A stretch of 64,000 bases of DNA from a virus. Position numbers and translations under genes: made by a program. Below are positions 5,630 through 51,311 of this stretch, piece after piece. The notes under the pieces were generated by a model, which saw only the letters and a list, made by a program, of their open reading frames with translations, was not told the DNA's origin and did no database searches. Numbering within the stretch: position 1 is the first letter of the stretch; each line of letters begins with the position of its first letter. The stretch spans positions 86,763-150,762 of IMG/VR virus record IMGVR_UViG_3300042453_005121; one strand, 5' to 3'.

Positions 5630-6388
5630 ATGAATATCATGAAACTAGTCATAAATTCAAATGTGAATTACGAAAAACCACTTCGCAAATTGTTTTTGTC
5701 CTTGCGTGGAGCGGGATTCAGGGATTACAAGAACATAATCGTTGTGAGGGGCCAATCAGAGTCTGACGAGGAGCCCAAAAAGGTCAAAATTTCCAAGGTT
5801 GTGAAATTGGGCATTCGTGATGAACTGACGTTAATCAACATGCGTTTGAATAACTTTGACTACACTGGGTATCATGCCCTGAATGTTTATAAAGAACACC
5901 CCCTCGTGAGTTCAGACTGGTATATGTACATTTTGGACACCGTTACGGTGAACAGCCTATTCGTGTCGTTCATCAATTCGGCATGCCCTGATCCGGATGA
6001 GTTGATGATCACCATGCGTCCTCATTCAAACATATGTGCATTTGGCAGTGAGGTGATAAAGAACTACGGAAACAATTTCGGCACGCCGTTGACAAAGGAC
6101 GAGGCAATAAGACTTGAGTTTGATTCGCCGATAGAAAAAAACGTAGCGAGCATATCAAGGTTCGGAAGAATAACTCAGATGAATACGAGATATTTGGTAG
6201 GAGAGGCCGACATATATGGAACGGGACATCCAAGAAAAAATCTTTATTACCCAGACTTCGGATTGAGCAAATGGATATTCTGGGGGAGGACTGGTGATAT
6301 CTTGGGAGACGTCCAAGAGAACAAAGTGTGGACGAGCGACGAGATCGCCAGATTCAAAAAAGAAAACAAGCCCGAATCATTTTTTTAA
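5630..6388 (+). CDS. Hypothetical protein, possibly glycosyltransferase-like
   Basis: 252-aa ORF with ATAAATA just upstream of the start. No firm motif. Confidence 0.55.
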   Translation: MNIMKLVINSNVNYEKPLRKLFLSLRGAGFRDYKNIIVVRGQSESDEEPKKVKISKVVKLGIRDELTLINMRLNNFDYTGYHALNVYKEHPLVSSDWYMYILDTVTVNSLFVSFINSACPDPDELMITMRPHSNICAFGSEVIKNYGNNFGTPLTKDEAIRLEFDSPIEKNVASISRFGRITQMNTRYLVGEADIYGTGHPRKNLYYPDFGLSKWIFWGRTGDILGDVQENKVWTSDEIARFKKENKPESFF

Positions 6389-6691
6389 CGATTTGCTCAA
6401 AGCGGTCCAGACGTCAGAACTTTTTATCTTTTGAACCGTCGTTCCGCCTGGTTGCGGCGAACTGGGATCGCCTGGGGCCGATGGCGCTCCTATGGAAGGT
6501 CCTCCCATGGGCGGTCCTCCCAAGCCCATAGGCGGACCACCGCCCCCTAAGCCTGGCGGAGGGCCGCTGCCAAATCCGGGGATGCTCGGCCCTCCCGGAG
6601 GTGGGCCTGGTGGGGGTGGTGGCTTTCCTCCACTTGGTGGAGGAGCCGGTGGAGTCGCTTCTAATATAAGGAATTGGTGAAAAGTAAGCAC
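6377..6691 (-). CDS. Pro/Gly-rich protein with N-terminal capsid-targeting-like tag
   Basis: MLTFHQFLILEA followed by low-complexity Pro/Gly. CTATATA lies 4 nt upstream of the GTG start. Confidence 0.65.
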   Translation of the reverse strand: MLTFHQFLILEATPPAPPPSGGKPPPPPGPPPGGPSIPGFGSGPPPGLGGGGPPMGLGGPPMGGPSIGAPSAPGDPSSPQPGGTTVQKIKSSDVWTALSKSLKK

Positions 6692-6744
6692 GAATTATAT
6701 AGCCCAGATAATAGATATATTTGTATGCAACAAGGAGTGTTTAA

Positions 6745-6915
6745 ATGGACGCAAAGGATTTGATGACCTTTATTGTTACCCTTTTCGTTCCGCCTCTCGG
6801 GGTGGCTCTGAAATCGGGATTCGGAACTCATTTTTGGGTGAATCTGGCTCTTACGGTGTTCGGTTTTTACATTGCGGGGATGGTTCACGGCGTTTACGTC
6901 GTGCTCAAGGACTAA
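6745..6915 (+). CDS. Pmp3/YqaE (UPF0057) small membrane protein
   Basis: Below the ORF-track cutoff. Translates as MDAKDLMTFIVTLFVPPLGVALKSGFGTHFWVNLALTVFGFYIAGMVHGVYVVLKD (56 aa), with PPLGV motif, two hydrophobic helices and an AAGGAG SD. Confidence 0.88.
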   Translation: MDAKDLMTFIVTLFVPPLGVALKSGFGTHFWVNLALTVFGFYIAGMVHGVYVVLKD

Positions 6916-7502
6916 AAATTAATTTGCGGAATCCTTGATATCACCAAATTCCAGTTCGTCGAAACCCATTTCTTGAATGTTTCTTCGGCCTTTTTGGGGC
7001 CGACCTCATCGGTTTTGCCTTTGGTCTGAAACTCTATCTCGTGGGTTGTTTCGTGTATTATGGTGCTAGCTATTTCCAGAACGGCTTCTTTTGTGTCGCC
7101 AAACTCCCTGACTATCTTTTGTACGTTCACGTGAATCACGTCACTAGGGGCGAGCTGTCTTTCATCTATATCTGGAATGTATTGTTTTATAACTGAATTT
7201 GGTATTCTTTGTAAGTTTTGCTGTTGTGCAGCGGAATGGCCGAATTTGAACCTTATTTTATTAGAAGCGGCAGGACCTATGATTTTTTTGTTTTCTGAAG
7301 AGTTGTATAGCCCATAAACTCCGGAATATAGGGGTGCAATGGTACTTATGTTGTTCAAAAGCTTCTGTCCTGTTGATTTGGAGTACAACTGGACCAGTTT
7401 TATTGCATACTTTGCCTTGTCGTACAACTGGTCTATTCTGCTTTCCACATTTTCTGTTCCGAGGGTGGAATTCTCCCCGAGCCATGATTTGAAATGTCCC
7501 AT
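6912..7502 (-). CDS. Putative zincin-like (HExxH) protein with capsid-targeting-like tag
   Basis: Start reassigned to MGHFKSWLGE. Contains IIHETTHE followed by a downstream E. Confidence 0.6.
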   Translation of the reverse strand: MGHFKSWLGENSTLGTENVESRIDQLYDKAKYAIKLVQLYSKSTGQKLLNNISTIAPLYSGVYGLYNSSENKKIIGPAASNKIRFKFGHSAAQQQNLQRIPNSVIKQYIPDIDERQLAPSDVIHVNVQKIVREFGDTKEAVLEIASTIIHETTHEIEFQTKGKTDEVGPKKAEETFKKWVSTNWNLVISRIPQINF

Positions 7503-7530
7503 TTGAATTATATATAATCGGGAGAAAAAA

Positions 7531-7737
7531 ATGGACATTTCGTATTTTTCAATGTGGCTTTTTCCTTTGTTGTTTATTTTTTCTTTGGTTGCTATTTTTT
7601 TGCACAACAAACGAAAATCCGAGACTTTGCAGTCTCAATTCGTAGTCACAGGTTGCCTTCTAATGATTTTTTATACCGTGTGTTTTCTTTCTGGAATATG
7701 CACGATTCTTAATTTCTTATGGCGATGGGTATTATGA
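7531..7737 (+). CDS. Small two-TM membrane protein
   Basis: 68 aa with two hydrophobic segments and a GGAG SD. Confidence 0.5.
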   Translation: MDISYFSMWLFPLLFIFSLVAIFLHNKRKSETLQSQFVVTGCLLMIFYTVCFLSGICTILNFLWRWVL

Positions 7738-8447
7738 AAAATTTGAATCTTCTCATACGCGGGCATATAAGAAATTCTTTTGATGATGACAAATTCATCA
7801 ATCTTATACGTGCGTTCTCAGAAAGCTACAAACTAGATATATTCATACACACTTGGAACATAGTCCAGAACAACATAAGTTGGCGTCACGTTCCCGAAAT
7901 AAAAAATGACGTCAGTGAGGAACATATTCGTTTGTACTTTAAGGAGTTTGAAAAAAACATAAAGTCAATCCAGATAGATGACGACAGCAAGATAGAACAT
8001 CGCGGAAATACTTCGGGAAACATAGGTTTTACTCCGTGTCCCGTTCTTGCGTGGAAAAATATGTATTATGGTAAAATGCGTCTAGTGGATAGAGTGGCAG
8101 AAAAAGTTAATGGAAACGAAGTGGCAGTACAGACTAGATTTGATCTCCTTTCAAATAGTTTCAGTCCAGAAGTGCATGATGTAATAAGATTTTTGAAGGA
8201 AAATTATGATTCAATAGCTGAAGGCGACAACCAAGAAAAATTAAGGTTCATATGGATGCATCCATTCATAGGTATTGACAACATATACATGGCTTCAATA
8301 AGAAACATGCAGAAATTCGTAAGATACATGTATTTTGACATGGACAGAATACTAGAATTTCACAAAGAAACACGTCATCAAGAACACATAAGCTTTCACG
8401 AAAGGTTTTCGCCGTTCATAAATACACATCATAGTCTAGGCGAATGA
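7734..8447 (+). CDS. Hypothetical glycan-related protein
   Basis: LLIRGHIR, DIFIHTW and TRFD motifs, a pattern common in viral GT-like proteins. Confidence 0.5.
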   Translation: MKNLNLLIRGHIRNSFDDDKFINLIRAFSESYKLDIFIHTWNIVQNNISWRHVPEIKNDVSEEHIRLYFKEFEKNIKSIQIDDDSKIEHRGNTSGNIGFTPCPVLAWKNMYYGKMRLVDRVAEKVNGNEVAVQTRFDLLSNSFSPEVHDVIRFLKENYDSIAEGDNQEKLRFIWMHPFIGIDNIYMASIRNMQKFVRYMYFDMDRILEFHKETRHQEHISFHERFSPFINTHHSLGE

Positions 8448-9342
8448 TCCTGTGGGTGGCTTTTGAACCGCCACCGAGGAATGGACCGGAATATTCGTTA
8501 TCGTTCTTTTTGTAAAGTACGCATGTTGGTTTGCCAACATCATCATAAAAAGTTATTGAATCTCCAGAGGCAGACCAGAACGTCTCGTTGTGATGATGGT
8601 ACATTCCGATCTTGCCGTCCTCTCTCAATTTTATGGTTCCATAGTGCCTATTGCCGTCGGAACCACCCCAGAAACTGTAACAGTTGTGGGGTCTTTTGGA
8701 TTCGGATTTGTCCATATTGAAGATGTAATACCATAGTCTTTCGCAATAGTGTCCGCACTCAGGATTGATTGTGGCAAGTTCTTTTTGTATGAGATTTATG
8801 TATCTTGAAATATTTGATTCAAGAATAAGTTTCACAGATACTCCGAAGCAGCCGTTCCAGAATATGGGCAAAGATGTTGACATTCCGGCCCTCACGTGTT
8901 TTTCGCACCATTCTTTGACGTTGCAATTTGCCGAACTTGTTTCTCCCGCCCAACTGGGACATCTTCCCGCATTCAAGAAGTCGTAGGGATTTGACATCCT
9001 GTAGTTGTACGTGTAGTCAAGATTTTCTTCGGCCACAGCATCAATCCACCTCATTATGTTTTCTGCGTCCATTCCGTGTGGACTTCCTTGTACAAAAAAA
9101 ATGAAATCCGAAGATTCTTTGGACTTCAACTCGTCCCAACGATTGACGCAGTGCCAGATGTACGTGTGAGATTCCCTTCCGACGTTCGTCAGATAAGAAT
9201 GACACGTTTTTTCCATTGAAGAGAGATCGGGCTCTTGTTCGCTTTTTGTGTAGACAAATACATTTCCCAAAAGATTGTGTTTCAATCTCCGGACCCAGTC
9301 AATATTTTCTTTGTAGTGGGCGACTACCACGTCAAATTTCAT
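8416..9342 (-). CDS. DUF3431-like protein (putative glycosyltransferase-related)
   Basis: VVAHYKENIDW, NVGRESHTY, FVQG, ERLWYYIF. Confidence 0.65.
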   Translation of the reverse strand: MKFDVVVAHYKENIDWVRRLKHNLLGNVFVYTKSEQEPDLSSMEKTCHSYLTNVGRESHTYIWHCVNRWDELKSKESSDFIFFVQGSPHGMDAENIMRWIDAVAEENLDYTYNYRMSNPYDFLNAGRCPSWAGETSSANCNVKEWCEKHVRAGMSTSLPIFWNGCFGVSVKLILESNISRYINLIQKELATINPECGHYCERLWYYIFNMDKSESKRPHNCYSFWGGSDGNRHYGTIKLREDGKIGMYHHHNETFWSASGDSITFYDDVGKPTCVLYKKNDNEYSGPFLGGGSKATHRIIRLDYDVYL

Positions 9343-9383
9343 GATGAAAACCCGCCTGATTTTGTTTGATGACTATAATATAG

Positions 9384-9412
9384 TTGAAAAAAGAGCCGTT
9401 TTTTGCTATGAT
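9384..9412 (+). promoter_or_regulatory. Sigma70-type promoter for the helicase, likely giving a leaderless mRNA
   Basis: TTGAAA-17 nt-TATGAT with an extended TG. ATG at 9419 falls at the expected +1. Confidence 0.65.
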
Positions 9413-9418
9413 GAAAGT

Positions 9419-11866
9419 ATGAAGGAAACCGTTCTCCGAATACAGAATTGCTATTCTTGGCTTTATTGCGATAAGTCAGATGTTTTGAGCGTACTTCACG
9501 AGAACATGCGGTTCAGAGAGAGGGGCTACTTCCACAGCCGTCTCTACAAACAGAAGCTCTGGGACGGGTACACCGAGTTCTTCAGCAAAAAGACGGGAAG
9601 GTTCCTCACCGGCCTGCTGCCTGAAGTGAAGGCAGCACTCACTCACATAGGCGAGGAGTACAGGATTCTTGATGAGCGGGGCGAATTTGATTTCAAATTC
9701 AATGAAATTGACGAGGATTTCCTCGGCAATGGCATAAAACTATACGATTACCAGGTTGACTTGACAAATGCGCTGATAAAGCACAAGAGGGGCGTCATAT
9801 GTGCGCCCACTGCGGCCGGTAAAGCACAGCCGCTTGATTCTCTGGTGGCGACTCCGGATGGATTTGTCCGTATGGGGGACATAAAAGCAGGCGACTTTGT
9901 ATTGACTCCCAAAGGCAAGAAGACCAAAGTTTTGGGAGTTTTTCCCCAAGGATTGAAGAAAGTTTACAAAATGCAATTCTCCAACGGAGACAGCGTGGAA
10001 TGCTGTGGTGAGCATCTCTGGAAGGTGAATGCCACATATGATCAGTGGATGGGCAAGGTATTAAATACCAACGAGATACGGAGAAGGGTCAAATGTCCGA
10101 ACGGAGCAAACAGATACAACATTGAGACGCCAAAAAACATCAGCTTCAGAAAAAGAAAAGTCACATTAGATCCTTATTTCATGGGTCTTCTCCTTGGAGA
10201 TGGTTCATTTAGGTGTCCGGGGGCGGTCACGATATCAAGTTCCGATGAAGAAATCATAGAATATGTGTCCTCATCTTTGTCGGACGGATACAGTCTGTTT
10301 TCGTGTGGCAAATTTGACTACAGAATTTCTTGTGGAAGAAGGGGCAAAGGAACTCCCAAGAACCCCTATGTGGAGTCCATAAAGAAAATGAGACTTTATG
10401 GACTCCACTCATGGAACAAATTCATACCCAAGGAGTACATGATCAATGATTTCAATACAAGACTTGCTGTGCTTCAAGGACTAATGGACACGGATGGTTA
10501 TATTGATAAAAAAGGCGGAATTTCATTTGTCAGTACTTCAAAGAAATTGACCGATGACTTGGCTTGGATTGTAAGAAGTCTTGGGGGAATTCCATATGTG
10601 TCAAAGACAATAAAGAGCTACACGTATAAGTCTGTGAAAAAACAAGGGAGGCTTGCGTTTTTGGTGAACTTCTCTTTGCCTGAGGGGATTTGTCCATTTA
10701 GACTTTCTCGCAAAAAAAACAGATTCAAGACAAAAAGAAGGCAACTCAAGAATAGAACCATCTGCGGCGTCAAATATGTCGGCAAGAAAGAATGCCAATG
10801 CATATTGGTAGAGGATGAGGATCACCTCTATATCACCGACAACTTTGTGGTTACCCACAACACCAACATAATGGTCTCCATTCTCAAGGCCTTGCCTAGC
10901 GGATGCCCAACGCTCGTGCTTGCCAACAAGAAGAGCCTTGTGGAGCAGAACTACGAGGAGATCGTCAAGTGGGGGTTTCAGAATGTAGGAAGGCTCTATG
11001 GCAAATATAAGGATCCCGGCGTCATAACCTGTGCCACTGTTCAGTCGCTACACAAGATGGAACCTCTCCTTGACAAGGTCAAGGTTCTGGTTGTCGATGA
11101 GATACACGAGAACATGAGCAAGGAGCCCAAGAAGTACTTCAACAAGATGAAGAGTTGCTCGGTCAGGGCAGCCGTGAGCGCTACTCCCTTCAAGTTCGGC
11201 GGAAAAGACCTATGCCAAAAGTGGCTCGTGAAGGGCTACTTCGGACCCTCCCTCAAGTCCAAGAGTGCCGGAGGGGTTCTCACGACAAGCCATCTGCAGG
11301 AACGGGGGATGCTCTCAAAGAGCAGGTGCATTTTCTACCCGGTGAGGGAGCCGGATCTCAAATATGAGATATACATGGATGCGGTGACGCGTGGAATAGC
11401 CGAGAACTGGCATTTCCACGAGATGATTAAGAACCTCGTCTCAAGGCTTGAGGGAAGGACGCTGATCCTTGTGGAGAGGATAGCCCAGGGGGACTCGCTT
11501 GCCTCTTTGATTCCGGGATCATTGTGGGTCCAAGGCAAAGACGACCTAGAGACAAGGAAAATGGTAATAGACAAGCTCAAGACCTCTAAAGAGCGGGTGG
11601 TTTCTATAGGAACACAGCAAATTTTCACGGCAGGAATCAATGTGATGACTCACAATGTCATAAACGCTGCTGGCGGTCAAGCCGACCACCACATCATACA
11701 GAGAGTGGGAAGAGGATTGAGAACGGCCGACGACAAGGACATCCTGAATTACTACGACTTCGTGTTTCATAATAACGACTATCTTCTGGAGCACAGCAAG
11801 AAAAGGATCAAAATACTAAAGAAAGAAGGGCATGAAATAATAATAAAAGACGATATTGACTTCTAG
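9419..11866 (+). CDS. SF2 DNA helicase (UvsW-like) containing an intein
   Basis: LYDYQ, PTAAGK|T Walker A split by the intein, DEIH, SAT, QRVGRGLR. Confidence 0.88.
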   Translation: MKETVLRIQNCYSWLYCDKSDVLSVLHENMRFRERGYFHSRLYKQKLWDGYTEFFSKKTGRFLTGLLPEVKAALTHIGEEYRILDERGEFDFKFNEIDEDFLGNGIKLYDYQVDLTNALIKHKRGVICAPTAAGKAQPLDSLVATPDGFVRMGDIKAGDFVLTPKGKKTKVLGVFPQGLKKVYKMQFSNGDSVECCGEHLWKVNATYDQWMGKVLNTNEIRRRVKCPNGANRYNIETPKNISFRKRKVTLDPYFMGLLLGDGSFRCPGAVTISSSDEEIIEYVSSSLSDGYSLFSCGKFDYRISCGRRGKGTPKNPYVESIKKMRLYGLHSWNKFIPKEYMINDFNTRLAVLQGLMDTDGYIDKKGGISFVSTSKKLTDDLAWIVRSLGGIPYVSKTIKSYTYKSVKKQGRLAFLVNFSLPEGICPFRLSRKKNRFKTKRRQLKNRTICGVKYVGKKECQCILVEDEDHLYITDNFVVTHNTNIMVSILKALPSGCPTLVLANKKSLVEQNYEEIVKWGFQNVGRLYGKYKDPGVITCATVQSLHKMEPLLDKVKVLVVDEIHENMSKEPKKYFNKMKSCSVRAAVSATPFKFGGKDLCQKWLVKGYFGPSLKSKSAGGVLTTSHLQERGMLSKSRCIFYPVREPDLKYEIYMDAVTRGIAENWHFHEMIKNLVSRLEGRTLILVERIAQGDSLASLIPGSLWVQGKDDLETRKMVIDKLKTSKERVVSIGTQQIFTAGINVMTHNVINAAGGQADHHIIQRVGRGLRTADDKDILNYYDFVFHNNDYLLEHSKKRIKILKKEGHEIIIKDDIDF
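9824..10861 (+). mobile_element. Intein (346 aa) with LAGLIDADG homing endonuclease, class-3 signature
   Basis: Starts AQPLDS and ends VVTHN|T. LAGLIDADG motifs MGLLLGDG and LQGLMDTDG. W in block B (HLW), C in block F (CQCI), T in block G. Confidence 0.9.
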
Positions 11867-12132
11867 TTGTCTCCTATATCTTTTATCAGTTCGGAAATCT
11901 TTATTCCGTCGCTTATTTTTTTGACTATTGATCCGTAACTTCCCATGCCGTCATTGGTTTTTTTCACCACGCCGAGGTTCTTCAGATTCTTGATTATATC
12001 CGGTCCGAAATCCTTTGTGTTTTTGCCGAGTAGGTAGTTTCTCTCATCAGACGTAAGTTCACCTCCGGAGTTCAGTACTCCTAGGATGGCGTCGGAAACC
12101 TCTTTTCTTTCCATCCATGTCAAAAAACGCAT
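11863..12132 (-). CDS. Hypothetical protein with capsid-targeting-like N-terminus
   Basis: Starts MRFLTWMERKE. GGAGG SD. Confidence 0.6.
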   Translation of the reverse strand: MRFLTWMERKEVSDAILGVLNSGGELTSDERNYLLGKNTKDFGPDIIKNLKNLGVVKKTNDGMGSYGSIVKKISDGIKISELIKDIGDN

Positions 12133-12149
12133 GAAACATGACCTCCAGA

Positions 12150-12160
12150 ACTATATATCC
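12150..12160. promoter_or_regulatory. Putative bidirectional late promoter (CTATATAT)
   Basis: TATATA core between two divergent genes that both carry the tag motif. Confidence 0.45.
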
Positions 12161-12163
12161 ATC

Positions 12164-12964
12164 ATGGGAACTTTCAAAGAATGGCTTATAAACGAGAAGT
12201 CCGACATCTTCGGATTTGAAAAACCTAGAGGGAAACAAACGCCCGAAGACTCGTATGACGGGCCAATAATACCCATAAAGCCAGAAATTTTGATAGAGAC
12301 CATGATGAAAGAGACCCTGCGGGGCCAAGAGCCGTTCTCGGCCTTTGCTGATCAAATTCAATGGGGAAGAACTACAGGAGCCATGAGGATGGTCATAAGT
12401 CCTCTTGGGTCGTTCAAGAGCATAATAAGAAAGATGCAACTTGATTTGGAAGGAAAAGAAACATGGGTTTGCAAGTCAATAATTCCCTACAAAGATTTGA
12501 TGCACGCCAACAAGAAGTTTGACGAGAACTTCGCCATGGACCTTTTTGAAAAGATTGAACAGATAGGATCACTTCAAATAGACACTCCCCAAGCCGAATA
12601 CAAGGGACTCAGGAATTTGACTGTATCTTTGGCCTCGCGCTGTAGGAGAAAAGACATCATGCCGGAGATATTCATATTCTCTGGAGTCAAGGAGATCAAA
12701 AAGGACGAGAATTATCTTATTGAGTTTGATTTGCGAGGACAGGGAGTTGAAGCCCCCGGATCGGCAAGAGTAGAGCGTTTCGTCATAGACATGAGCTACA
12801 ATCCCAAGACCGGAATGATCAAGAGTTTCGGACATGACATACAGTCCCCCACGAGGGGTCACGTTTGGTATCCTCAGCCTTCGGAGTGGGAAGAACTTTT
12901 CTCTAATGGACAAGATGCCAAGGAAATAGTAGAGACAATAGGAGCGGCATTGAGCACGTATTGA
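12164..12964 (+). CDS. Hypothetical protein with capsid-targeting-like N-terminus
   Basis: Start reassigned to MGTFKEWLINE, 6 nt after CTATATA. Confidence 0.7.
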   Translation: MGTFKEWLINEKSDIFGFEKPRGKQTPEDSYDGPIIPIKPEILIETMMKETLRGQEPFSAFADQIQWGRTTGAMRMVISPLGSFKSIIRKMQLDLEGKETWVCKSIIPYKDLMHANKKFDENFAMDLFEKIEQIGSLQIDTPQAEYKGLRNLTVSLASRCRRKDIMPEIFIFSGVKEIKKDENYLIEFDLRGQGVEAPGSARVERFVIDMSYNPKTGMIKSFGHDIQSPTRGHVWYPQPSEWEELFSNGQDAKEIVETIGAALSTY

Positions 12965-13076
12965 ATATGGGATTCAGACAATGGCTTGAAGTGATGGGAT
13001 CGGTCGGAGCAATAGTATCTTGCAAGGATTTGAAGAATCCTAATTTTCAAATACAAGGGGCACTTTCAAATCTTGG

Positions 13077-13649
13077 GTGCGTGAAGAAAGAAAAGACGGC
13101 GAAGATGCGATTCGGAGGAAAGAAGTGAAAAAAGACACGTCCAACCAAACGAACTTAAAAAATGCTATAGTGGACATAGCAAAAAGCCTAGAGTCTGTAT
13201 TCAAGAAGTACAGCAGACAAACTCGATCCAAGGCGTGGGAAAAAGTTACAGGAAAAGATGGAGAGAAGGAGATGAAGAAGATAATCAATGATCCATCAAG
13301 GCCGATAAATACATTCCAAAAATTGGCCACCCAAAAGGAGTCAAGCCAAATCGGAATCAAGGTGTGGTTGGACGACGTTCGTCCCGTTCCGGAAGGATTT
13401 GATTTGTGGGTTAAAAATTCCAAAGAGGCAATTGAAGCTTTGAAAAAAGGAGGAGTTTCTTTGATATCCTTGGATCACGATCTCGGAGAAGAGTCCGGTA
13501 CGGGCTATGACGTGGCCAAGTTCATAGAAGAGATGGCTTTCAGAGGCGATATGAGTCCTATGGAAATAAGGGTTCATTCTGCAAACCCGGTCGGAGCAAT
13601 GAATATGATGAGATGCGTGAAAAACGCCAGAAAGTTCTGGGCTGTTTAG
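13077..13649 (+). CDS. Protein with C-terminal cyclic-phosphate-processing receiver-like domain
   Basis: VWLDDVRP, ISLDHDLG, TGYDVAKF, VHSANPVG. The in-frame sequence upstream of the GTG reads (AGG)GTFKSWVREE. Confidence 0.7.
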   Translation: MREERKDGEDAIRRKEVKKDTSNQTNLKNAIVDIAKSLESVFKKYSRQTRSKAWEKVTGKDGEKEMKKIINDPSRPINTFQKLATQKESSQIGIKVWLDDVRPVPEGFDLWVKNSKEAIEALKKGGVSLISLDHDLGEESGTGYDVAKFIEEMAFRGDMSPMEIRVHSANPVGAMNMMRCVKNARKFWAV

Positions 13650-17015: not shown

Positions 17016-22048
<5,033 letters not shown>

Positions 22049-22052
<4 letters not shown>

Positions 22053-42989: not shown

Positions 42990-43009
42990 TTTTTCACTTG
43001 TATCTAGGA

Positions 43010-43037: not shown

Positions 43038-43059
43038 AACGATTCAAAAGGGTTAAAAA

Positions 43060-43659
43060 ATGAAACTTATAGGCTGTGCGGGTCAGGCGAGGAATGGCAA
43101 GGATGTCACGGCGGACCACCTCGCTCGCAAACTGGGGTGGAATAGGGGTGCTTTTGCCTCAAATGTAAAGCGCATATTCTGTGACGCATTCGGGGTGGAT
43201 TATGAGTTTATAGAGCACTGGAAGACCGTTCCCAACGCCCCCGAAGACTTCCAGATGGCAGTGAGGAACGCCCTTCAATTTATAGGGGATGGATTCCGCC
43301 AGATCAAGGGCGAGGTGTGGATTGACATGCTTTTGCGGGATGAGCCTGATTCGCTAATAATATCGGACATCAGATATGTCAATGAATTGAGGGCGGTCAG
43401 AAAGAGGGGTGGCGTGAATGTATTGATTTACCGGCCCGGCTTCATGAACGACGACCCGAATGATTCGGAAGCGGTCATGCGCAGGTTTGCGACTCATTTT
43501 TTGAAGATGGGACGCGAGGGGTCGGTGAGCTCCAGCGGGGACTACGGCCTTGTGGATTTCTTTATTGTGAACGACGGTTCCGTTGACGACCTTTTCGCGA
43601 AGATAGACGATCTGGTTGTCCCTCACCTGTCGCTATTGTCTCAGGCCACGCTCGTCTGA
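43060..43659 (+). CDS. Deoxynucleoside monophosphate kinase (T4 gp1-like)
   Basis: GQARNGKD, RNALQFIGD, ISDIRYVNE, NDG. Confidence 0.85.
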   Translation: MKLIGCAGQARNGKDVTADHLARKLGWNRGAFASNVKRIFCDAFGVDYEFIEHWKTVPNAPEDFQMAVRNALQFIGDGFRQIKGEVWIDMLLRDEPDSLIISDIRYVNELRAVRKRGGVNVLIYRPGFMNDDPNDSEAVMRRFATHFLKMGREGSVSSSGDYGLVDFFIVNDGSVDDLFAKIDDLVVPHLSLLSQATLV

Positions 43660-44449
43660 TCATCTCTTCCTTGAGCCACGACTTGAAATCAAGTCCTTCG
43701 CTGGTCTGCACTAGGCTTCTGGTTCTTGCGTCCACGGCCTTGGGTTGCAATCTTGACTTGTCTGTCGGGATGAGGATCGGCTTGTTGTAGGTGGTGCTCG
43801 GTAATTGCTGCGGCCTGAACCCGCCCGACCCCTTTAGATCGGCCAGCCTAACTTCCGAACTTCTTCCTGTTTTATGATCGTAAAGGTTGAATTCTATTTC
43901 TTCGTCTGAATCTTCCACGCCTTCTTGGTCCAATATGTCTTCCAGGCCGCCTACGAGGTTTCTTCTTTTTGTTTCGTCAAAGCCGAACAACTCAATGTTG
44001 TCGTTCCTCACTGCTATCCAGCCTTCTTTTTTCATGACGTACAATCTTGGATCAATGTTTGATTGCGGTCTTGAATGACGATGGAGACTATAATTTCCTG
44101 ACATAATTACATGAAGGGCTTCTTTGTCCATGCCGCAGTTTTTTTCTATTTCATTCCATATTTCAACGTCACTCTTGTATAGTGGCATTTTTGGATTGGA
44201 TGGGTCCGCTTTCGTGAACAAATTTTTCAATATGAGTTCCAACAACCATTGAGCTGATTCTGTGGGTTCGTCTTGCAATGAGGACAACGAATTGGCGCTG
44301 ATTCCCAATTCCTTCGCATAGTTATGGATTGCCTCCAAATGCTCGGAGCAGACGTGTTCAATCGCGATCATCTCGTGATTTTTGTCGCCCGTGTCCCCGT
44401 CGGCGAAATCCACCTGTCCGTCCTGTATCCAGTATTCTCCCCGTATCAA
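43562..44449 (-). CDS. Hypothetical protein
   Basis: 295-aa acidic ORF with LDFKSWLKEE near the C-terminus. Confidence 0.65.
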   Translation of the reverse strand: MIRGEYWIQDGQVDFADGDTGDKNHEMIAIEHVCSEHLEAIHNYAKELGISANSLSSLQDEPTESAQWLLELILKNLFTKADPSNPKMPLYKSDVEIWNEIEKNCGMDKEALHVIMSGNYSLHRHSRPQSNIDPRLYVMKKEGWIAVRNDNIELFGFDETKRRNLVGGLEDILDQEGVEDSDEEIEFNLYDHKTGRSSEVRLADLKGSGGFRPQQLPSTTYNKPILIPTDKSRLQPKAVDARTRSLVQTSEGLDFKSWLKEEMIRRAWPETIATGEGQPDRLSSRKGRQRNRRSQ

Positions 44450-44832
44450 GCCATGCCTCCCGGCTGCGGCTGGAAGTCTTGAGACAATAGTTTATCTAAG
44501 TCTTCCACTGGAACTATGAAGTTTTTCTCCTCTTCTTCTTTTTCCACCCTCACCGTTTCCCCGTCCTTGTCCTTGTATATTCTTTTCTTTATGACGGGGT
44601 CGGTGATTTTTCTCACTATCGCGTGAGTTATCTTTCCTTCGTCGTTTCTCTTGAATTTGACGATTTTGTAGGAACTTACGTTGTTGGTCACTCCTCCCAT
44701 GGAGAAGAAACTGGCTATCTGCGGCTCCTTCTCAAGTTCGCTGGGGTCCAATCCGAGTTCGTCTTGGAGCGCTGAAAGATAAGGGCTTTTTTCTTCTTCT
44801 TCTAAGAACTTTCTGAACGATTTTTCGGCCAT
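44446..44832 (-). CDS. Hypothetical protein with capsid-targeting-like N-terminus
   Basis: Starts MAEKSFRKFLEEE. CTATATA lies 8 nt upstream. Confidence 0.7.
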   Translation of the reverse strand: MAEKSFRKFLEEEEKSPYLSALQDELGLDPSELEKEPQIASFFSMGGVTNNVSSYKIVKFKRNDEGKITHAIVRKITDPVIKKRIYKDKDGETVRVEKEEEEKNFIVPVEDLDKLLSQDFQPQPGGMA

Positions 44833-44864
44833 ACACGAGATATATAGCATCACGGAGGACGAAT

Positions 44865-45254
44865 ATGAGCAGCCCGGGATTCTCGGATTTTAGGGAGTTG
44901 ATGGACAAGTGGGACAATACCTCGCGGCTATTCACGGAGAGTGATTTGTGTCTCTTCTTCCGCAAGGACGATACTCTATACGGAGCGACCGAGACAGGCA
45001 GAATAACCTACGCACGAATGAAGAACCCCGAATCCAAGGAGGACGAAAACTGGAGCAAGGAGGCGACTTTCTCGGCTTATGATCTGGAAAAGTCTGCTGA
45101 CGGCAAGAACACGATGTCCGTGTTCGGCAAATCTGATCTCAAGAAGATTGAGGCCATTTCTCAAGAAGATGCCGAAAAGGAGCTGGAGAAAAAAGGCAAG
45201 AAAATGCCCGCCATATCGGAAGAAGATCAGGAGCGGACCTACGGGGAGGAATGA
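44865..45254 (+). CDS. Hypothetical acidic protein
   Basis: GGAGG SD. Shares the TATATA element at 44840-44847 with the divergent gene. Confidence 0.7.
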   Translation: MSSPGFSDFRELMDKWDNTSRLFTESDLCLFFRKDDTLYGATETGRITYARMKNPESKEDENWSKEATFSAYDLEKSADGKNTMSVFGKSDLKKIEAISQEDAEKELEKKGKKMPAISEEDQERTYGEE

Positions 45255-45442: not shown

Positions 45443-46101
45443 CCCTTCAATTCGGCGATTCGGGGCACAAGTACGTCTGCTTCTGTTGTGGGGTCCAGTT
45501 CTCCGAGTACGACGAGTTTAAATCTCATATCGTTGACAATCACCAAGAGGGCAGGGAATACGTGATTTGTCCTTTGTCTCACTGTCGTGCTCCGGTGAGG
45601 GACGTGAAGTTGCATCTCAAGGTCAAACACCCCGGGTTCGACCACAAAAATTTCATGGGTCAGGCTAGGGCCATAGTGTGGAACGATTTCTCCTCCAAGG
45701 GAGTAAAAAAGACCAGAAAGCCCAGGTTCAAGCAGGGCAAGTACGAGTCCACCAAAACCGGAAAGATCCTCGGATACAGATCGGGACTCGAGGAGAAACT
45801 TTACAAGATACTTGATCAACACGACGAGGTGGTTTCCTTTTATTCCGAGCCCCTTCACATAGACTACATCCATCAAGGACAAGCCCATAAGTATATCCCT
45901 GATCTTTTTGTGGTTTTCATGGACGGTCACAAGGAAATATGGGAGGTCAAGCCCACCAATCAGACTGATTTGGATATAAACAAGGACAAATGGAGGGCTG
46001 CCGAAGAGGCTTGCAAGGTAAGAGGCTGGAACTTCAGGGTTTTCACGGAACAGGGCATAGAGAAGCTTGGTCAGGAAGTACGCAGACAAAACATAGAATG
46101 A
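45439..46101 (+). CDS. Zn-finger plus TnsA-like PD-(D/E)xK nuclease (T4 gp4 head-completion family)
   Basis: Two C2H2-like fingers, YRSGLE, SEP, YIPD, EVKP, KWRAA, FTE. Confidence 0.75.
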   Translation: MTLQFGDSGHKYVCFCCGVQFSEYDEFKSHIVDNHQEGREYVICPLSHCRAPVRDVKLHLKVKHPGFDHKNFMGQARAIVWNDFSSKGVKKTRKPRFKQGKYESTKTGKILGYRSGLEEKLYKILDQHDEVVSFYSEPLHIDYIHQGQAHKYIPDLFVVFMDGHKEIWEVKPTNQTDLDINKDKWRAAEEACKVRGWNFRVFTEQGIEKLGQEVRRQNIE

Positions 46102-46112
46102 CGGGGGTTGTT

Positions 46113-46925
46113 ATGGAATTTAGGAACTGGTTGTTGGGAGAGGGCGTGCGCGAACTGGTCAAGGCCTATTCGGATTCGTTGAGGAACGTCCCCCAGAATT
46201 TTGATCATCATCCCGAGGGATCGGTGCTCAACCACGTCAAGTTGGTGAGGAAGTCGGTACTCTCGGCGGCCAAAGAACTCCAGAATCTCAAGGATGATTC
46301 TGTTCTGGGCGATGTCCTTCACGATCTTGATTTCAATCTTGATGAGGAGGAAGTCAAGATTTTAAATCTTGCCGCTTGGCTTCATGACATAGGCAAGTCC
46401 ACCGCTACGACCGTGGACGGAACACACTACAGTAAGGCCCAAGGTTTGGACGGCAAAGTTCAGGCGATAGGCCACGAGTCTCCCGAGCATTATGCTCCTC
46501 AAGTAGACAAGATGATTTCTTTGGCTCCTGATTCGCTCGTCAATTTCTATGAAACCCATAGGAATTTGGTCAATTTCCTTATTGAGCGACATATGGATTT
46601 TGCCCATGGAGGATTCGGCAAAAAAATTCTTTCTTCATATTTTGTAAATGGCAGAATCAAGAACGATCGCAACATGAAATTGTTATTGGTTTTGATGTGG
46701 GCGGACAAGATGGGGAGGGGCAAGGCTCCGGAACTCGCTGGAAATATCAATAAATTAAGAACAGCCGCAGAAAAAAGTCGCGAGATGGCTGCCAAAGCCG
46801 AAAGACAGTCAAGGCCGTTTTCCGGCGGCGAGACAGAGTTCAGGAACATGCTCCGCTCAAGAGGCTTGGATCAGGCCGCAATTGACGCCGCCGTGAGTTC
46901 AAAGTTCACACCGGTTCAAGATTGA
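46113..46925 (+). CDS. HD-domain phosphohydrolase with capsid-targeting-like N-terminus
   Basis: MEFRNWLLGE, HHPEGSVLNH, LHDIGK, GHE, HM, AD..GR. Confidence 0.78.
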   Translation: MEFRNWLLGEGVRELVKAYSDSLRNVPQNFDHHPEGSVLNHVKLVRKSVLSAAKELQNLKDDSVLGDVLHDLDFNLDEEEVKILNLAAWLHDIGKSTATTVDGTHYSKAQGLDGKVQAIGHESPEHYAPQVDKMISLAPDSLVNFYETHRNLVNFLIERHMDFAHGGFGKKILSSYFVNGRIKNDRNMKLLLVLMWADKMGRGKAPELAGNINKLRTAAEKSREMAAKAERQSRPFSGGETEFRNMLRSRGLDQAAIDAAVSSKFTPVQD

Positions 46926-46950
46926 CATTGAAAATGGGTTTTTGTAGACT
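46922..46950 (+). promoter_or_regulatory. Sigma70-type promoter
   Basis: TTGACA-17 nt-TAGACT. Confidence 0.6.
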
Positions 46951-46960
46951 CTCTGAAGTC

Positions 46961-48001
46961 ATGAAAACCGATCTTTATGTTTTTCAATGGATATCTGATC
47001 TCGGGGGAGCCGACACCCGACTCAAAGAACTTCTCATACTTCTCAAGGACGACTTCAATATAACCTGCATTCCGAACGACGAGTTCAGGCTTTCGGAGAA
47101 GCACAATACTGATTTCCTTGATTCGCTTGGCGTGAAGTACTGCATGCCAAAAGTTCTTCCCAAGAATCCCAAGGGTTTTGCTTACGCGAATTGCAACTTC
47201 AGGCTCTTTCAAGAGCGAGAAAGAATAAATTTCATAAATGACAAGGGCCTGAAATTCTTGTGGTCCAACGACATGATGTGGACCACTCCTGAAGAGATAG
47301 AGGCCATAAAAAAAGGAAAGGTTGATTGCTGTCTTTTTACATCAACCTTTCATCAAGGAATTTTGGGCGAAAAGATATTCGCCGCCAAGAAGGATCAGAA
47401 GGCCGCCATACTTGACAATTATTTTGATGCCTCCACGTGGGAGTACGCAGAAAGACCCGACAGGGAAACGATGGTGTGCGGGAAAGTCAGTCGGGATGAT
47501 CAAATGAAATTTTCCGAAGACTTTCCCATGTTTTATCAAAGAGCCACCGCTGGCCTGCCCGTTTCCTACAGAATCATGGGTTGGAACAAGGAACTTTCCG
47601 AAAAGTACGACTGGTTCAAGTTTGGCGAGAATTGGGAATTCCTCTCCACGAACAAGGAGCCCACGAGGAGTTTTTATTCTTCGTTGGATGTTTTTCTCTA
47701 TAACTGCAACCACAGGTTCATAGAAAACCAGAGCCGTGCTATTGTAGAGGCCCAACTGACAGGCCTTCCTGTGGTCGCCCCCAACAAATGGAATTTTCCG
47801 AATATGATTTGGGACCAGAGAACTGGATTTTTATGGAACAACCTCTTGGAAATGAAGGAGGCCCTGTCTGACCTTGTTCACCCGGACTTCAGGAAGAAAA
47901 TGGGGCGGATGGCAAGCGAATGCGCCAGACAGATATGGTGCGATTCTGAAGTCGCCAAGAGAAAGTGGAATTCGCTTTTGAATTATGTGGAGGGAAACTG
48001 A
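46961..48001 (+). CDS. GT4 (GT-B) glycosyltransferase
   Basis: GGAD, ENQSRAIVEAQLTGLPVV (E-x7-E), TGFL. Confidence 0.82.
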   Translation: MKTDLYVFQWISDLGGADTRLKELLILLKDDFNITCIPNDEFRLSEKHNTDFLDSLGVKYCMPKVLPKNPKGFAYANCNFRLFQERERINFINDKGLKFLWSNDMMWTTPEEIEAIKKGKVDCCLFTSTFHQGILGEKIFAAKKDQKAAILDNYFDASTWEYAERPDRETMVCGKVSRDDQMKFSEDFPMFYQRATAGLPVSYRIMGWNKELSEKYDWFKFGENWEFLSTNKEPTRSFYSSLDVFLYNCNHRFIENQSRAIVEAQLTGLPVVAPNKWNFPNMIWDQRTGFLWNNLLEMKEALSDLVHPDFRKKMGRMASECARQIWCDSEVAKRKWNSLLNYVEGN

Positions 48002-48867
48002 TGAAGACACTAATCTGGTCGGTTGCTTGGGGCGAATACAGGTATATGCTTCAGACTCTGATGGATTCAATCCGTTCGTGCGGTTTGCAGCACGACATAC
48101 TTACGTTCTCGGACGAGCCCCTGGCGAACGTGACTTCCTGCGAGGTTGACAAATCCATACAAATGGACTTCAAGCAGTATTGGAAGTTCCATTATCTGAA
48201 TAAAATCCGCGAATTGGACTATGATCTTTTTGTTTTCATAGACAGCGATCATTATTTTGTTAGAAAACCACCAAAGGAATTTCATGAAATAATAGGACCG
48301 GACCCTTGGCATTCGTTCCTTGAGTCGCCCATCAATTCCGAACTCACCAAGAGGCCCGATTGGTGGGGCGTCACCAACTCCAGTATGACCAAGATTTACA
48401 GGGACTTCGGCGTGACGCAAGACACGGTCTACAGCACGAACGGAGGGTTCTGGATGTGTCGCAAGGAATTCATGAAACAGGCGGCGAATGTCGGCTTCTT
48501 GTTCAGGGACTACCAAAAGGGCCTCGGGCTTGACCTGCCTGAGGAAGTTGCCATAGCCGTGATTTCCCACATGTTCAGTGCGGATTACTCCCAAAGATTT
48601 CACAAGAGATATATGGACATATGGGCCAGCGAGTGGACGGGAGTACTGCAGGACCGTCTTCCCGACGGATCACAATGGGAGTTTCAGGAATATATGACGG
48701 GAACAAAATCTCTTTTGAATCCGGCGATAGTACACGCGATGAGAAGCAAGAATGCTCTCGTCGGAGCGGGGAAGAGTACTTTTGAAAAGACCAAGTCAAC
48801 TAGGAAGTTCATTTCGTGGGATAAAGTAAGGTCCGGAGCCCGCTGGAGTGTCTTTGATGAAGGCTGA
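48001..48867 (+). CDS. GT-A fold glycosyltransferase-like protein
   Basis: FIDSD DxD motif, NGGF. Confidence 0.6.
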   Translation: MKTLIWSVAWGEYRYMLQTLMDSIRSCGLQHDILTFSDEPLANVTSCEVDKSIQMDFKQYWKFHYLNKIRELDYDLFVFIDSDHYFVRKPPKEFHEIIGPDPWHSFLESPINSELTKRPDWWGVTNSSMTKIYRDFGVTQDTVYSTNGGFWMCRKEFMKQAANVGFLFRDYQKGLGLDLPEEVAIAVISHMFSADYSQRFHKRYMDIWASEWTGVLQDRLPDGSQWEFQEYMTGTKSLLNPAIVHAMRSKNALVGAGKSTFEKTKSTRKFISWDKVRSGARWSVFDEG

Positions 48868-49501
48868 AATTCTAGGTCATTTTGGCGACGACCTTATGGT
48901 GGTCAACGCAGCCAGAGTTAGTTACGGAAAGAACAAGGAGAATTTTGATGAGAAGGACGCAAAACTCATCAGGTTTCTCGTGGAGCACGGACACACCTCG
49001 CCTTTCCGTCATCCGCAATTGCAGTTCAGGATTGAGTGTCCCATATTTGTGGAGCGACAACTCTTCAAGCATCAGGTGGGCCTCACCGCAAACAGCATAA
49101 GCGGAAGATACGTTGATTTCTCGGACGAGTACTGGTTGCCCGACCAACTCAGGCTGCAGTCAAAGGACAGCAAGCAGGGAAGCAGTGGCGACCTTGATTC
49201 GGTCGCCAATGAAAATTTTAAGGACCAGATGCAGATGCTACTCAAGCACGCCAAGTCCTTGTACGACCAGATGGAGGCTGCAGGCGTCGCCAAGGAGCAG
49301 TGCAGGATCATATTGCCGCTTTGTCTTGAGACTCAATTTGTTTGGACTGGTTCCTTGGCGGCCTTTATTCATTTGTGGAAACTTAGGTTGAAGCCCGACA
49401 CCCAACAGGAAACTAGAGAATTGGCTCTAATGATGTTGGGCGCAGTTAAGTCGCTGCCGGGCTGCCCTTTCCTGCGTACGCTGGAGGCGTTCGGTCTTTG
49501 A
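48857..49501 (+). CDS. thyX: Flavin-dependent thymidylate synthase
   Basis: AARVS, HTSPF, RQLFKH, SGRY, EQCRIILP. Confidence 0.92.
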   Translation: MKAEILGHFGDDLMVVNAARVSYGKNKENFDEKDAKLIRFLVEHGHTSPFRHPQLQFRIECPIFVERQLFKHQVGLTANSISGRYVDFSDEYWLPDQLRLQSKDSKQGSSGDLDSVANENFKDQMQMLLKHAKSLYDQMEAAGVAKEQCRIILPLCLETQFVWTGSLAAFIHLWKLRLKPDTQQETRELALMMLGAVKSLPGCPFLRTLEAFGL

Positions 49502-50856
49502 ACGAACTTTTGCAGCGGCTGTACGACCACAAGCCCAGAGTCGCCGTTTACGGCGATGCGATGATTGATGAGTATTACGAGGTGGATTCCGACAAGTTGA
49601 GTCCGGAATTTCCCATCCCGGTATTGCGGTCCTGTTTTTCCCAACCGCATGCCGTCGCTCTTGGAGGGGCCGCAAACGTTTGTGCACAATTTAGAAACTT
49701 TAATTTTGACGTAAGTTTGTTTGCTCTGACGAACGATAGGATCAAACGGATGGGTTCGGGCGTCAATATGGACGGATGTATCTTTTCAAGGTCGGTGCCG
49801 GTCAAAAGGAGATACTACAGCGGTGATTTCCCGCTCTGTCGCATTGACTCCGAGGTGCGTGATTACAACTACGAACAAGAGGTCTTGAAAGACCTGCAGC
49901 AAAAGATACTAGACAATCTTAGTTCCTCTGGCCCCTACGACGTGGTTGTTTTTTCAAACTATGAAAAAGGAATGTTTTCCGGGCTTGATAATTTTGCGTC
50001 TTTCGCGGGAGACGCGATAACGATCGTTGATCCCAAGTCCGGTCCCCCCGAGCGATGGAGGGGTTGCACGATAATCAAACCCAATGCCAAGGAGGCCAAG
50101 GAGATAACCGGGCTTTCTGACTGGAAGGACCAATGCGCCCTTCTCATGAAGGCCACGGGATGTCAGGCTGTGGTTATCACGCGTGGCGGCGAAGACGTCG
50201 TGGGGAACGTGCAAGGTTTGTGGTTTGAATACAAGCCCGAGAGTCCCGTCCGAGCCAACTCCGTCGTGGGCGCGGGCGATTGTTTCGTTGCCTTTCTCGC
50301 CATGTGCATGTGCCATTCAATAGACATCAGAAGGTCGGTGGAGATAGCGTTTGAGGCCTGTTCTCTTTATGTCCGCGAATCCCACAATAGGCCGATTTAC
50401 CCTTATCAGATTGAGCCCACAAAATTCGTGGATTCTAGGAATCTGATTAATCGCGATTTTAAACTGGCATTCACTAATGGCTTTTTTGATATTTTGCATC
50501 CCGGTCACGTGGAACTTCTCAAACACGCCAAATCAAAGGCCGATTCGCTCGTTGTCGCCCTGAACACGGACGACAGTGCCATCAGGCAAAATAAATCCCA
50601 CAGACTGGTGAATGGTTTGGACTATCGCAAGTCCATGATTGCGGCCTTGGAGTGCGTTGACTTCGTTTTAGACTTCGGCGAGGACACCCCCTACGAATTG
50701 ATTAAAAGAGTCAGGCCGGATGTCCTTGTCAAAGGCTCCGACTGGCCCAATCCTGTGGGATCGGACCTTGTGGGCGAGGTGTGTTCTTTCGGTTTGGTGG
50801 GAAATCATTCCACTACGGGTATAATTGAAAAAATATGGTCAATTGCCCCTAGATAA
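49498..50856 (+). CDS. hldE: Bifunctional heptose-7-P kinase / heptose-1-P adenylyltransferase
   Basis: GDAMID, LGGAANV, VDPK, PN..EA, GAGD, FTNGFFDILHPGH, KGSDW, STT. Confidence 0.85.
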   Translation: MNELLQRLYDHKPRVAVYGDAMIDEYYEVDSDKLSPEFPIPVLRSCFSQPHAVALGGAANVCAQFRNFNFDVSLFALTNDRIKRMGSGVNMDGCIFSRSVPVKRRYYSGDFPLCRIDSEVRDYNYEQEVLKDLQQKILDNLSSSGPYDVVVFSNYEKGMFSGLDNFASFAGDAITIVDPKSGPPERWRGCTIIKPNAKEAKEITGLSDWKDQCALLMKATGCQAVVITRGGEDVVGNVQGLWFEYKPESPVRANSVVGAGDCFVAFLAMCMCHSIDIRRSVEIAFEACSLYVRESHNRPIYPYQIEPTKFVDSRNLINRDFKLAFTNGFFDILHPGHVELLKHAKSKADSLVVALNTDDSAIRQNKSHRLVNGLDYRKSMIAALECVDFVLDFGEDTPYELIKRVRPDVLVKGSDWPNPVGSDLVGEVCSFGLVGNHSTTGIIEKIWSIAPR

Positions 50857-50859
50857 GGC

Positions 50860-51135
50860 ATGAATAAATTTAAAGACTGGCTTTGTATGAGGGAGCAGAT
50901 GACACCCGCCAAACCGGGCCAGCTCCTTAAACCAACTAATTCTGCGGCCCTCAAAGACGATGGGGCCAAGATTGACACTATGATCAAAAAGACAATAGCG
51001 GCGAACATGAAGAAGCCCAAGCAGATGCAGAAGGCCGCTCTTGAGACGCTCGGCAAGCAGGTTGCGAGCAATCCAGGAACCACGCCCAAAGACCTAAAGA
51101 AGATAGCCGACGTGATTTCCGACGAGGGAATGTGA
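50860..51135 (+). CDS. Hypothetical protein with capsid-targeting-like N-terminus
   Basis: Starts MNKFKDWLCMRE. CTAGATA lies 4 nt upstream. Confidence 0.7.
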   Translation: MNKFKDWLCMREQMTPAKPGQLLKPTNSAALKDDGAKIDTMIKKTIAANMKKPKQMQKAALETLGKQVASNPGTTPKDLKKIADVISDEGM

Positions 51136-51311
51136 CTTTTCGTGAATGGCTCTTGGAAGAAGGCGGCAAGGGTTCTGGACCCAAGTTAACCGCCACGGGC
51201 CTTAACGCCGGGGGAATGACCCAGCACGGGATGCGATACCGGATGTCGGCCAAGCCTGCCAAGCCAGCAAGGCCATTCGCTCCCATTTCTCCTTTTAAAA
51301 ATCGCACCTGA
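51132..51311 (+). CDS. Small basic protein with capsid-targeting-like N-terminus
   Basis: Not in the ORF track. GTG start overlaps the upstream stop: MTFREWLLEEGGKGSGPK...FKNRT (59 aa). Confidence 0.65.
   Translation: MTFREWLLEEGGKGSGPKLTATGLNAGGMTQHGMRYRMSAKPAKPARPFAPISPFKNRT

Follow-up and report, generated by a model that had tools for sequence, protein, structure and literature searches.

Bacteriophage T4 marks internal proteins for packaging with a capsid-targeting sequence (CTS), a short N-terminal propeptide carried by IPII and IPIII and, in similar form, by IPI (Mullaney and Black 1996, as reviewed in PMC9026906, PMC3012670, and PMC8442874). The T4 tag reads M-K-T-Y-Q-E-F-I-A-E and is removed by a single cut after Glu (PMC8442874); we confirmed its sequence by translating T4 ipII and ipIII. 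By suppressor genetics in T4, residues 4 and 7 were assigned to targeting and residues 8 and 10 to processing, and the motif cleaved by the prohead protease gp21 is L/I-x-E (PMC9026906). Here we describe a related N-terminal tag shared by otherwise unrelated proteins on a contig from an uncultured phage (IMG/VR record IMGVR_UViG_3300042453_005121). The window that we analyzed is the last 64 kb of this 150,762-bp contig (64,000 nucleotides [nt], positions 86,763 to 150,762), and coordinates are given below as either window or contig positions. We estimate a probability of about 0.7 that the tag is a T4-type capsid-targeting propeptide composed of two functional halves and used here on a greatly expanded scale.

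The likeness to the T4 CTS extends to several features. In both cases, a portable N-terminal tag of about 10 residues stands directly after Met on unrelated proteins, with the skeleton M-K-T-[Y/F]-x-E-[F/W]-[I/L]-x-E and an end that forms an S77 prohead-protease site, hydrophobic-x-Glu. The same set of head genes (gp20, gp21, gp22-like, and gp23) is present, and small basic proteins are among the tagged cargo. The contig differs from T4 in having Trp instead of Phe at position 7 and a variable spacing of the Glu, with 0 to 3 extra residues. At least 24 proteins are tagged on a 150-kb fragment, whereas the whole T4 genome holds three matches to the equivalent pattern; the tagged proteins include large putative enzymes of up to 947 amino acids (aa), and their genes form several scattered islands rather than one internal-protein locus. 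In addition, packaging is predicted here from the sequence alone.

Three other systems offer partial parallels. The T4 ADP-ribosyltransferase Alt is packaged and injected after its terminal propeptides are removed by gp21 (PMC9026906). We found no sequence homology to Alt; the resemblance is that an enzyme would be delivered with the DNA after propeptide removal, the lead on our contig being the PARP/Tpt1/DarT-like product of contig 60123-61004. Alt is of the R-S-E type, whereas this protein, if its assignment is real, would belong to the H-Y-E fold class. The phages phiKZ, 201phi2-1, and SPN3US package many different proteins, including transcription machinery, with propeptides cut after Glu by a gp21-related protease, and propeptides of the phiKZ/SPN3US type mostly exceed 100 residues, share no common short tag, and carry an S/A/G-x-E motif (PMC5694885, PMC9026906). 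These are also huge phages, and packaging of many proteins is likewise predicted here, but the tag on our contig is uniform, only 8 to 12 residues long, and hydrophobic at P3, and does not have the features of a long propeptide; moreover, the capsid and scaffold genes of those phages are far from those of T4. Because the tag is short and uniform, it can be recognized directly in a translated gene, unlike the phiKZ-type propeptides. Finally, encapsulin cargo-loading peptides are short shared address peptides that direct unrelated enzymes into an HK97-fold shell. They differ from the present tag in that they usually sit at the C-terminus, attach directly to the shell protein without being cleaved, and have no connection with DNA or ejection.

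The contig derives from a lineage that is distant from cultured phages. Its CheckV completeness is 28%, from which the full genome is probably about 0.5 Mb, and the same DNA is present in lake-water metagenomes of several studies. The closest GenBank record, an unannotated 595-kb "uncultured phage" (LR756511), shares 78.6% capsid-protein identity, whereas identity to the capsid proteins of cultured phages is at most about 40%; huge relatives span 532 to 595 kb, and 401 IMG/VR contigs carry this capsid type. A blastn search with 7.9 kb of the window found no match among GenBank phages, and neither did a tblastn search with the HD-superfamily cargo protein described below. No paper that we found mentions LR756511 or ties capsid targeting to uncultured T4-like phages. 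No tRNA genes were found in the 64-kb window.

The tag follows the pattern M-x(1-2)-F-x-x-W-[L/M]-x(0-3)-E, often with Glu as the second residue after Phe. Among the approximately 175 genes of the contig, 24, or about one in seven, have a strong tag at their start, and about 7 more have a weaker one; 10 of the at least 24 tagged proteins are encoded in the window. The core F-x-x-W-[LMIVF] occurs 77 times in the six reading frames of the contig, and in 21 of these occurrences a Met precedes the Phe by 2 to 3 residues, compared with an expectation of 2.6 (P = 5e-14). Met is enriched at no other offset from this core on the contig. When residues 2 to 13 of 173 gene calls made blind to the tag were scored for 1179 patterns, F..WL was the top-ranked triplet at positions i, i+3, and i+4, with 9 N-terminal against 6 internal occurrences (P = 1.5e-12), and led the ranking by six orders of magnitude. 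Both counts bear out the N-terminal enrichment on which an earlier note, which had proposed a capsid-targeting tag from the letters of the window, made its reading depend. A matrix built only from relatives produced 25 start-anchored hits of at least 8 bits versus 5.6 expected, and the positions flanking the core resemble those of the relatives' tags at N-terminal sites, not at internal sites (P = 2e-5). Orthologs of nearly every tagged protein keep the tag in relatives, where the consensus is M-K-T-F-x-E-W-L-E. Beyond the tag, the proteins are indeed unrelated, as the same note had claimed: after removal of the first 15 residues, no two of them were similar by BLASTP at E < 1e-3, and different cargo proteins carry different Pfam domains.

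We compared the tag with the functional map of its T4 counterpart and found that the conserved positions are the same, with aromatic residues at 4 and 7, an aliphatic residue at 8, and Glu near 10. A hydrophobic-x-Glu ending falls within residues 7 to 14 in 23 of the 24 tags and in 30 of the 153 other genes (P = 3e-13). In tags with a longer distance between Trp and Glu, a new hydrophobic residue stands two positions ahead of the Glu, and the first Glu is followed mostly by Ala, Asn, Gly, or Ser. Gene fusions in relatives bear on how the tag may be divided. On our contig, 59152-60126 (GNAT-like) and 60123-61004 are separate genes, each with one tag, whereas in four distinct clusters of relatives (proteins P0102, P0106, P0107, and P0111) the two are joined directly in one polypeptide, whose GNAT domain bears an N-terminal tag of its own. 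At the fusion junction, the second tag has lost its Phe and Trp but keeps the hydrophobic-x-Glu followed by Ala, with E11 invariant in the alignment. Orthologs of the PGDYG protein are fused behind longer N-terminal regions and have no tag at the junction. These fused forms match what a two-part signal predicts, namely, one targeting element per polypeptide and a cleavage site at each point where a mature protein would be released. All predictions of the T4-type capsid-targeting reading that could be tested at the level of sequence held.

The machinery that such a tag would require is encoded at the start of the contig, which begins with a T4-type head module consisting of Portal_T4, Peptidase_S77, a scaffold candidate, and the Gp23 capsid protein. 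The Peptidase_S77 match at contig 7596-8309, a gp21-type prohead protease, scores 95.9 bits against a cut-off of 27, and S77 is encoded by 4 of 5 independent large tag-bearing records. The scaffold candidate, at contig 8314-9228, is an acidic coiled-coil protein adjoining the head genes, and directly ahead of the mature domain of the capsid protein lies a conserved L-[I/M]-N-E site. The tail sheath, tube, sheath stabilizer, and head-tail adaptor are of T4 type as well. One tagged gene (contig 3662-4474) lies between the portal and protease genes, the place occupied in T4 by the prohead-core genes 67 and 68, and it has a tagged ortholog in three relatives (L007, L009, and L011). Across the loci of the relatives, tags are most frequent about 6 kb upstream of the capsid gene, and there are 0.15 to 0.39 tagged genes per kb in the 2 to 10 kb after it. 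Two further features of the head module were observed. In the portal gene (L001:39-2432), which is truncated by the contig start, the portal domain is preceded by an intein splicing domain (Pfam E = 8.7e-11). Directly upstream of the protease, a conserved acidic protein of 598 aa (L001:5789-7585) has an L-I-E motif at its start and an internal tag-like F-x-x-W-L at residue 113, and is a candidate prohead-core protein.

These observations suggest a model in which each half of the tag has its own role. The targeting half (residues ~3 to 8) would form a short amphipathic helix with Phe, Trp, and Leu or Met (i, i+3, i+4) on one face. By analogy with T4, this helix would attach the protein to the scaffolding core while the prohead assembles late in infection. 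The cleavage half comprises the next 1 to 4 residues, whose hydrophobic-x-Glu ending is seen in the sequence; the S77 prohead protease would cut after this Glu and free the mature protein inside the head. As with T4's internal proteins and with Alt, the freed proteins would then remain with the packaged DNA and enter the next host.

If this analogy holds, the predicted packaged proteome comprises at least 24 proteins on the 150-kb fragment. Small basic proteins would be part of it, together with candidate host-takeover enzymes (SNF2 helicase, DnaJ, HD hydrolase, cREC, GNAT-like, and PARP/Tpt1-like). The assignments of the SNF2/DEAD helicase (947 aa), the DnaJ-domain protein, and the cREC_REC protein of window 13059+ (Pfam E = 4e-28) are solid. 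The 46113+ protein is plausibly an HD hydrolase, given its H..HD motifs and the weak HD-superfamily rows that Foldseek returned for its structural model (best E = 0.016), and 59152-60126 is plausibly a GNAT. The PARP/Tpt1/DarT-like signals of 60123-61004 (Atlas, Pfam) are weak, below all curated thresholds, and serve as a lead only; its AlphaFold2 model is poor, with a mean predicted local distance difference test (pLDDT) score of 64.5. The GNAT-like and PARP/Tpt1-like pair (L004:5152-7004, contig 59152-61004) could constitute a two-enzyme modifier module. Three basic window proteins of 53 to 91 aa are like T4 internal proteins. The earlier note had counted a peptidase-like protein, an HD hydrolase, and a receiver-like protein among the cargo; the last is secure and the second plausible, and the HExxH motif of the first (6912..7502) is present in a protein not assigned to a family, its VLTF3 match being below threshold and a lead only.

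The composition of this cargo also bears on an alternative in which the tag does load the prohead, yet most of the tagged proteins are not injected and instead serve as core, inner-body, or DNA-condensing parts of a very large capsid, or are degraded there. With a genome of probably about 0.5 Mb this is conceivable, since bulky internal bodies made of proteins with cleaved propeptides are known from giant phages, and several of the cargo proteins are small, basic, or of low complexity. However, many others (SNF2, DnaJ, HD hydrolase, cREC, and PARP-like) resemble enzymes or regulators for which a function inside a capsid is not apparent, and the T4 proteins that bear this tag are ejected. We therefore regard a purely structural fate for most of the cargo as rather unlikely.

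To examine how the tag relates to the protein behind it, we used the HD protein (46113+) as a test case. In an alignment of 50 orthologs of 37 to 79% identity, F3 is invariant and W6 and E10 are at least 90% conserved, compared with a mean column identity of 50%. The AlphaFold2 model has a mean pLDDT of 91.5 overall and 58 over the first 10 residues, and places a tag helix at residues 3 to 8, followed by a break and by the first domain helix at residues 13 to 23. In the model, the tag thus lies outside the fold, and strong conservation without structural integration is typical of a docking peptide. Such linear-motif behavior, highly conserved yet detached from the fold, would also suit a docking motif for another hub, such as a chaperone, an unfoldase or protease (as a degron), RNA polymerase, or a replication clamp, that co-regulates the stability or location of some 25 proteins; a DnaJ-domain protein is encoded on the contig. 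This explanation is improbable, because the tag agrees with the T4 capsid tag at all four functionally mapped positions, because a degron or clamp motif leaves the hydrophobic-x-Glu ending unexplained, because the tag occurs together with S77, the head module, and virion-type promoters, and because the fused forms retain the cleavage half only.

The regions upstream of the tagged genes link them to virion genes. A TA[T/A/G]ATA hexamer followed by 4 to 6 nt and the start codon precedes 10 of 24 tagged starts but only 6 of 151 other starts (P = 1.7e-6). The same hexamer, placed farther upstream and combined with a ribosome-binding site, precedes the head protein, sheath stabilizer, tail tube, head-tail adaptor, and tail fiber genes. 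The TATATA-type hexamer resembles the T4 late promoter TATAAATA. Because the hexamer is common to both groups, tagged genes appear to be expressed together with virion genes. At several tagged genes, the spacing of 4 to 6 nt between hexamer and start codon implies leaderless mRNAs. Single palindromic TATATA hexamers were also observed in gaps of 28 to 32 nt between divergent genes (12152-12157, 44841-44846, and 7509-7516), where one hexamer may serve both directions.

Because these 10 starts leave no space for a ribosome-binding site, we considered whether the conserved element could reside in DNA or RNA, as a signal for translation initiation or for leaderless mRNAs or as a site of recombination at gene starts, with the peptide as a by-product; in T-even phages, tag-coding DNA has been proposed as a recombination point. 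The codons speak strongly against this idea. Phe is encoded in the tags by 14 TTC and 10 TTT codons, and each of the six Leu codons appears at the Leu position. As synonymous codons vary freely at both positions, the conserved level is the peptide, and the codon usage indicates that selection acts on the peptide and not on the nucleotides. Furthermore, the peptide is kept in orthologs at 37% identity, and tags are also found on genes that have long leaders and Shine-Dalgarno sites and on genes within operons. A nucleotide-level element is thus very improbable. Chance, or membership in a hidden family of paralogs with a common N-terminal domain, has nothing in its favor except that amphipathic N-terminal helices are common, and can be dismissed given the enrichment values above, the lack of similarity past residue 15, the differing Pfam domains, and a tag that is modeled as a detached, low-confidence helix.

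The distribution of the tag beyond the contig further delimits the system. The relatives' loci (about 970 kb) hold 85 tags, and the coding pattern M-K-T-F-x-E-W-L is found in 114 IMG/VR stretches, compared with roughly a dozen estimated by chance. The Trp-type tag does not exceed the control in T4, two cyanophages, the Flavobacterium phage immuto, and the 484-kb LR756508, and neither does a broader K/E-anchored pattern (accepting Phe, Tyr, or Trp at position 7) in a Listeria phage, the same two cyanophages, and immuto. In the whole T4 genome, the T4-style pattern matches only ipII, ipIII, and the hypothetical gp61.1, and it has no match in a reversed control. T4 gp61.1 (54 aa, NC_000866 18966-19130) begins M-K-T-F-K-E-F-I-K-E, a near-perfect capsid-targeting tag, and may on this basis be an overlooked packaged protein. 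As judged from these searches, the mechanism is common to T4 and the scale is specific to this lineage.

Several observations weigh against the interpretation of the tag as a T4-type capsid-targeting propeptide. Strong motifs at internal or C-terminal positions (contig 37474; window 43687, minus strand) are not predicted by the simple model. The early Glu is absent from the tag of contig 61973-63133 and from that of the ortholog of 51132 in the relative L198. Complete huge relatives carry fewer tags per kb. Lastly, cargo of up to 947 aa would have to unfold or use a wide channel for ejection.

Features of the window that carry the tag or lie between tagged genes (window coordinates)
Position	Strand	Feature	Length (aa)	Start codon	Tag (nt)	Upstream element
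6377..6691	-	Tagged, Pro/Gly-rich	104	GTG	6659-6691	TATATA 6696-6701, 4 nt ahead of start
6912..7502	-	Tagged, HExxH motif at residue 150	196	ATG	7473-7502	Hexamers 7509-7516
11863..12132	-	Tagged	89	ATG	12109-12132	Hexamer 12152-12157, shared with 12164+; GGAGG ribosome-binding site
12152..12157	.	Palindromic TATATA hexamer between divergent tagged genes 12132- and 12164+; candidate late-type promoter element				
12164..12964	+	Tagged; best-scoring tag on contig	266	ATG	12164-12196	
12967..13128	+	Tagged small basic gene; starts 3 nt after stop of 12164 gene	53		12967-12990	
13059..13649	+	cREC_REC (cyclic-phosphate receiver) protein; tag in frame			13059-13085	
44446..44832	-	Tagged; F..F variant with four-residue lead	128	ATG	44800-44832	Hexamer 44841-44846
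44865..45254	+	Doubtful, weak tag-like N-terminus; F..F-R, Asp in place of Glu	129	ATG		
46113..46925	+	Tagged HD-superfamily protein	270	ATG	46113-46142	
50860..51135	+	Tagged small basic protein, T4-internal-protein-like	91	ATG	50860-50895	TAGATA 50850-50855
51132..51311	+	Tagged small basic protein; start overlaps stop of 50860 gene	59	GTG	51132-51158	

All ten sites listed in the earlier note are present at the positions and on the strands it gave, and nine of them open with a start codon, which is ATG in seven cases and GTG at 6691- and 51132+; the exception is 13059+. The note had missed the tagged gene 12967-13128+, and the 44865+ case, which it had called weaker, is doubtful. Most of the sites are supported by relatives. 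The tag of 6912..7502 is retained by orthologs in five relatives, the ortholog of 12164..12964 in L190 is tagged, and 12967..13128 has tag-bearing orthologs in L117 and L149. In L198, the ortholog of 44446..44832 retains the tag, that of 50860+ is tagged, and that of 51132+ has an ATG start and a tag. The 44865+ gene was missed by matrix scans of the contig, and its ortholog in L198 begins M-F-S-E-F-R-D-L-M-E. The tag of 6377..6691 is an F..F variant with a hydrophobic-x-Glu end followed by Ala; this is the least secure gene call of the set, because no ortholog was found and the opposite strand is also open.

The cREC_REC gene at 13059+ is unusual in that AGG stands where the start codon is expected, with no ATG, GTG, or TTG and with a stop five codons upstream. 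The next possible start is a GTG at 13077, within the tag. Orthologs in relatives have a proper start and tag. Because the start codon has been lost, the product may now be made without the tag, which would then be a relic, with translation starting at GTG 13077; otherwise, initiation may be unusual. We rejected an assembly error, as contigs assembled from four lake-water runs, including two from other studies, have the same letters. The gene overlaps the conserved tagged gene 12967-13128 by 70 nt, and a programmed frameshift from that gene into the 13059 frame is unsupported, there being no slippery heptamer at the GGGG run.

Tag-like motifs were also observed away from annotated tagged starts. 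One strong motif lies near 43687 in the window gene 43562-44449 (minus strand) and another at L003:1474-1506 (contig 37474); of the two, one is ~41 residues before the C-terminus of a 295-aa protein, and the other is 13 residues before the stop of a 140-aa protein. Such motifs may represent relics of fusions or, as in T4 Alt, propeptides at the C-terminus. A 68-aa open reading frame (ORF) at 7531-7737 (plus strand), divergent from the 7502 gene, has F-x-x-W-L near its start; this is probably not a tag, because the motif runs directly into a hydrophobic, membrane-like stretch. Elsewhere in the window, an A-tract of ~11 Lys codons (21680-21760, plus strand) lies opposite the 5' part of a 1678-aa ORF (17016-22052, minus strand), and long homopolymer tracts of this kind are possible sites of slippage or assembly error.

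The kind of system described here is known from the T4 CTS; what is new is its greatly expanded variant in uncultured huge phages and its two-part logic. A more far-reaching proposal, which we offer tentatively and consider doubtful as a whole, is that a two-part address code has been kept from T4 to a clade of ~0.5-Mb uncultured lake phages and expanded there into an "injectome" legible in the genome. The cargo would be a pre-made takeover kit delivered with the DNA (SNF2 ATPase, PARP-like and GNAT-like modifiers, HD hydrolase, and DnaJ), some of it as fused polyproteins that the prohead protease splits in the capsid, and overlooked cargo in model phages, such as T4 gp61.1, would be recognizable by the same rule.

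Injected proteins are normally known only from virion mass spectrometry of cultured phages. If the tag works as it does in T4, the proteins injected by an entire clade of huge uncultured phages could be listed from genomes, and the tagged proteins without assigned function would become candidate host-takeover or anti-defense factors of the first minute of infection. The tag also corrects gene starts, and the Trp-type variant and the natural fusions could be used to engineer protein packaging in T4-type capsids. More generally, our results suggest that targeting of the T4 kind is much older and in much wider use than would be concluded from the three internal proteins of T4.

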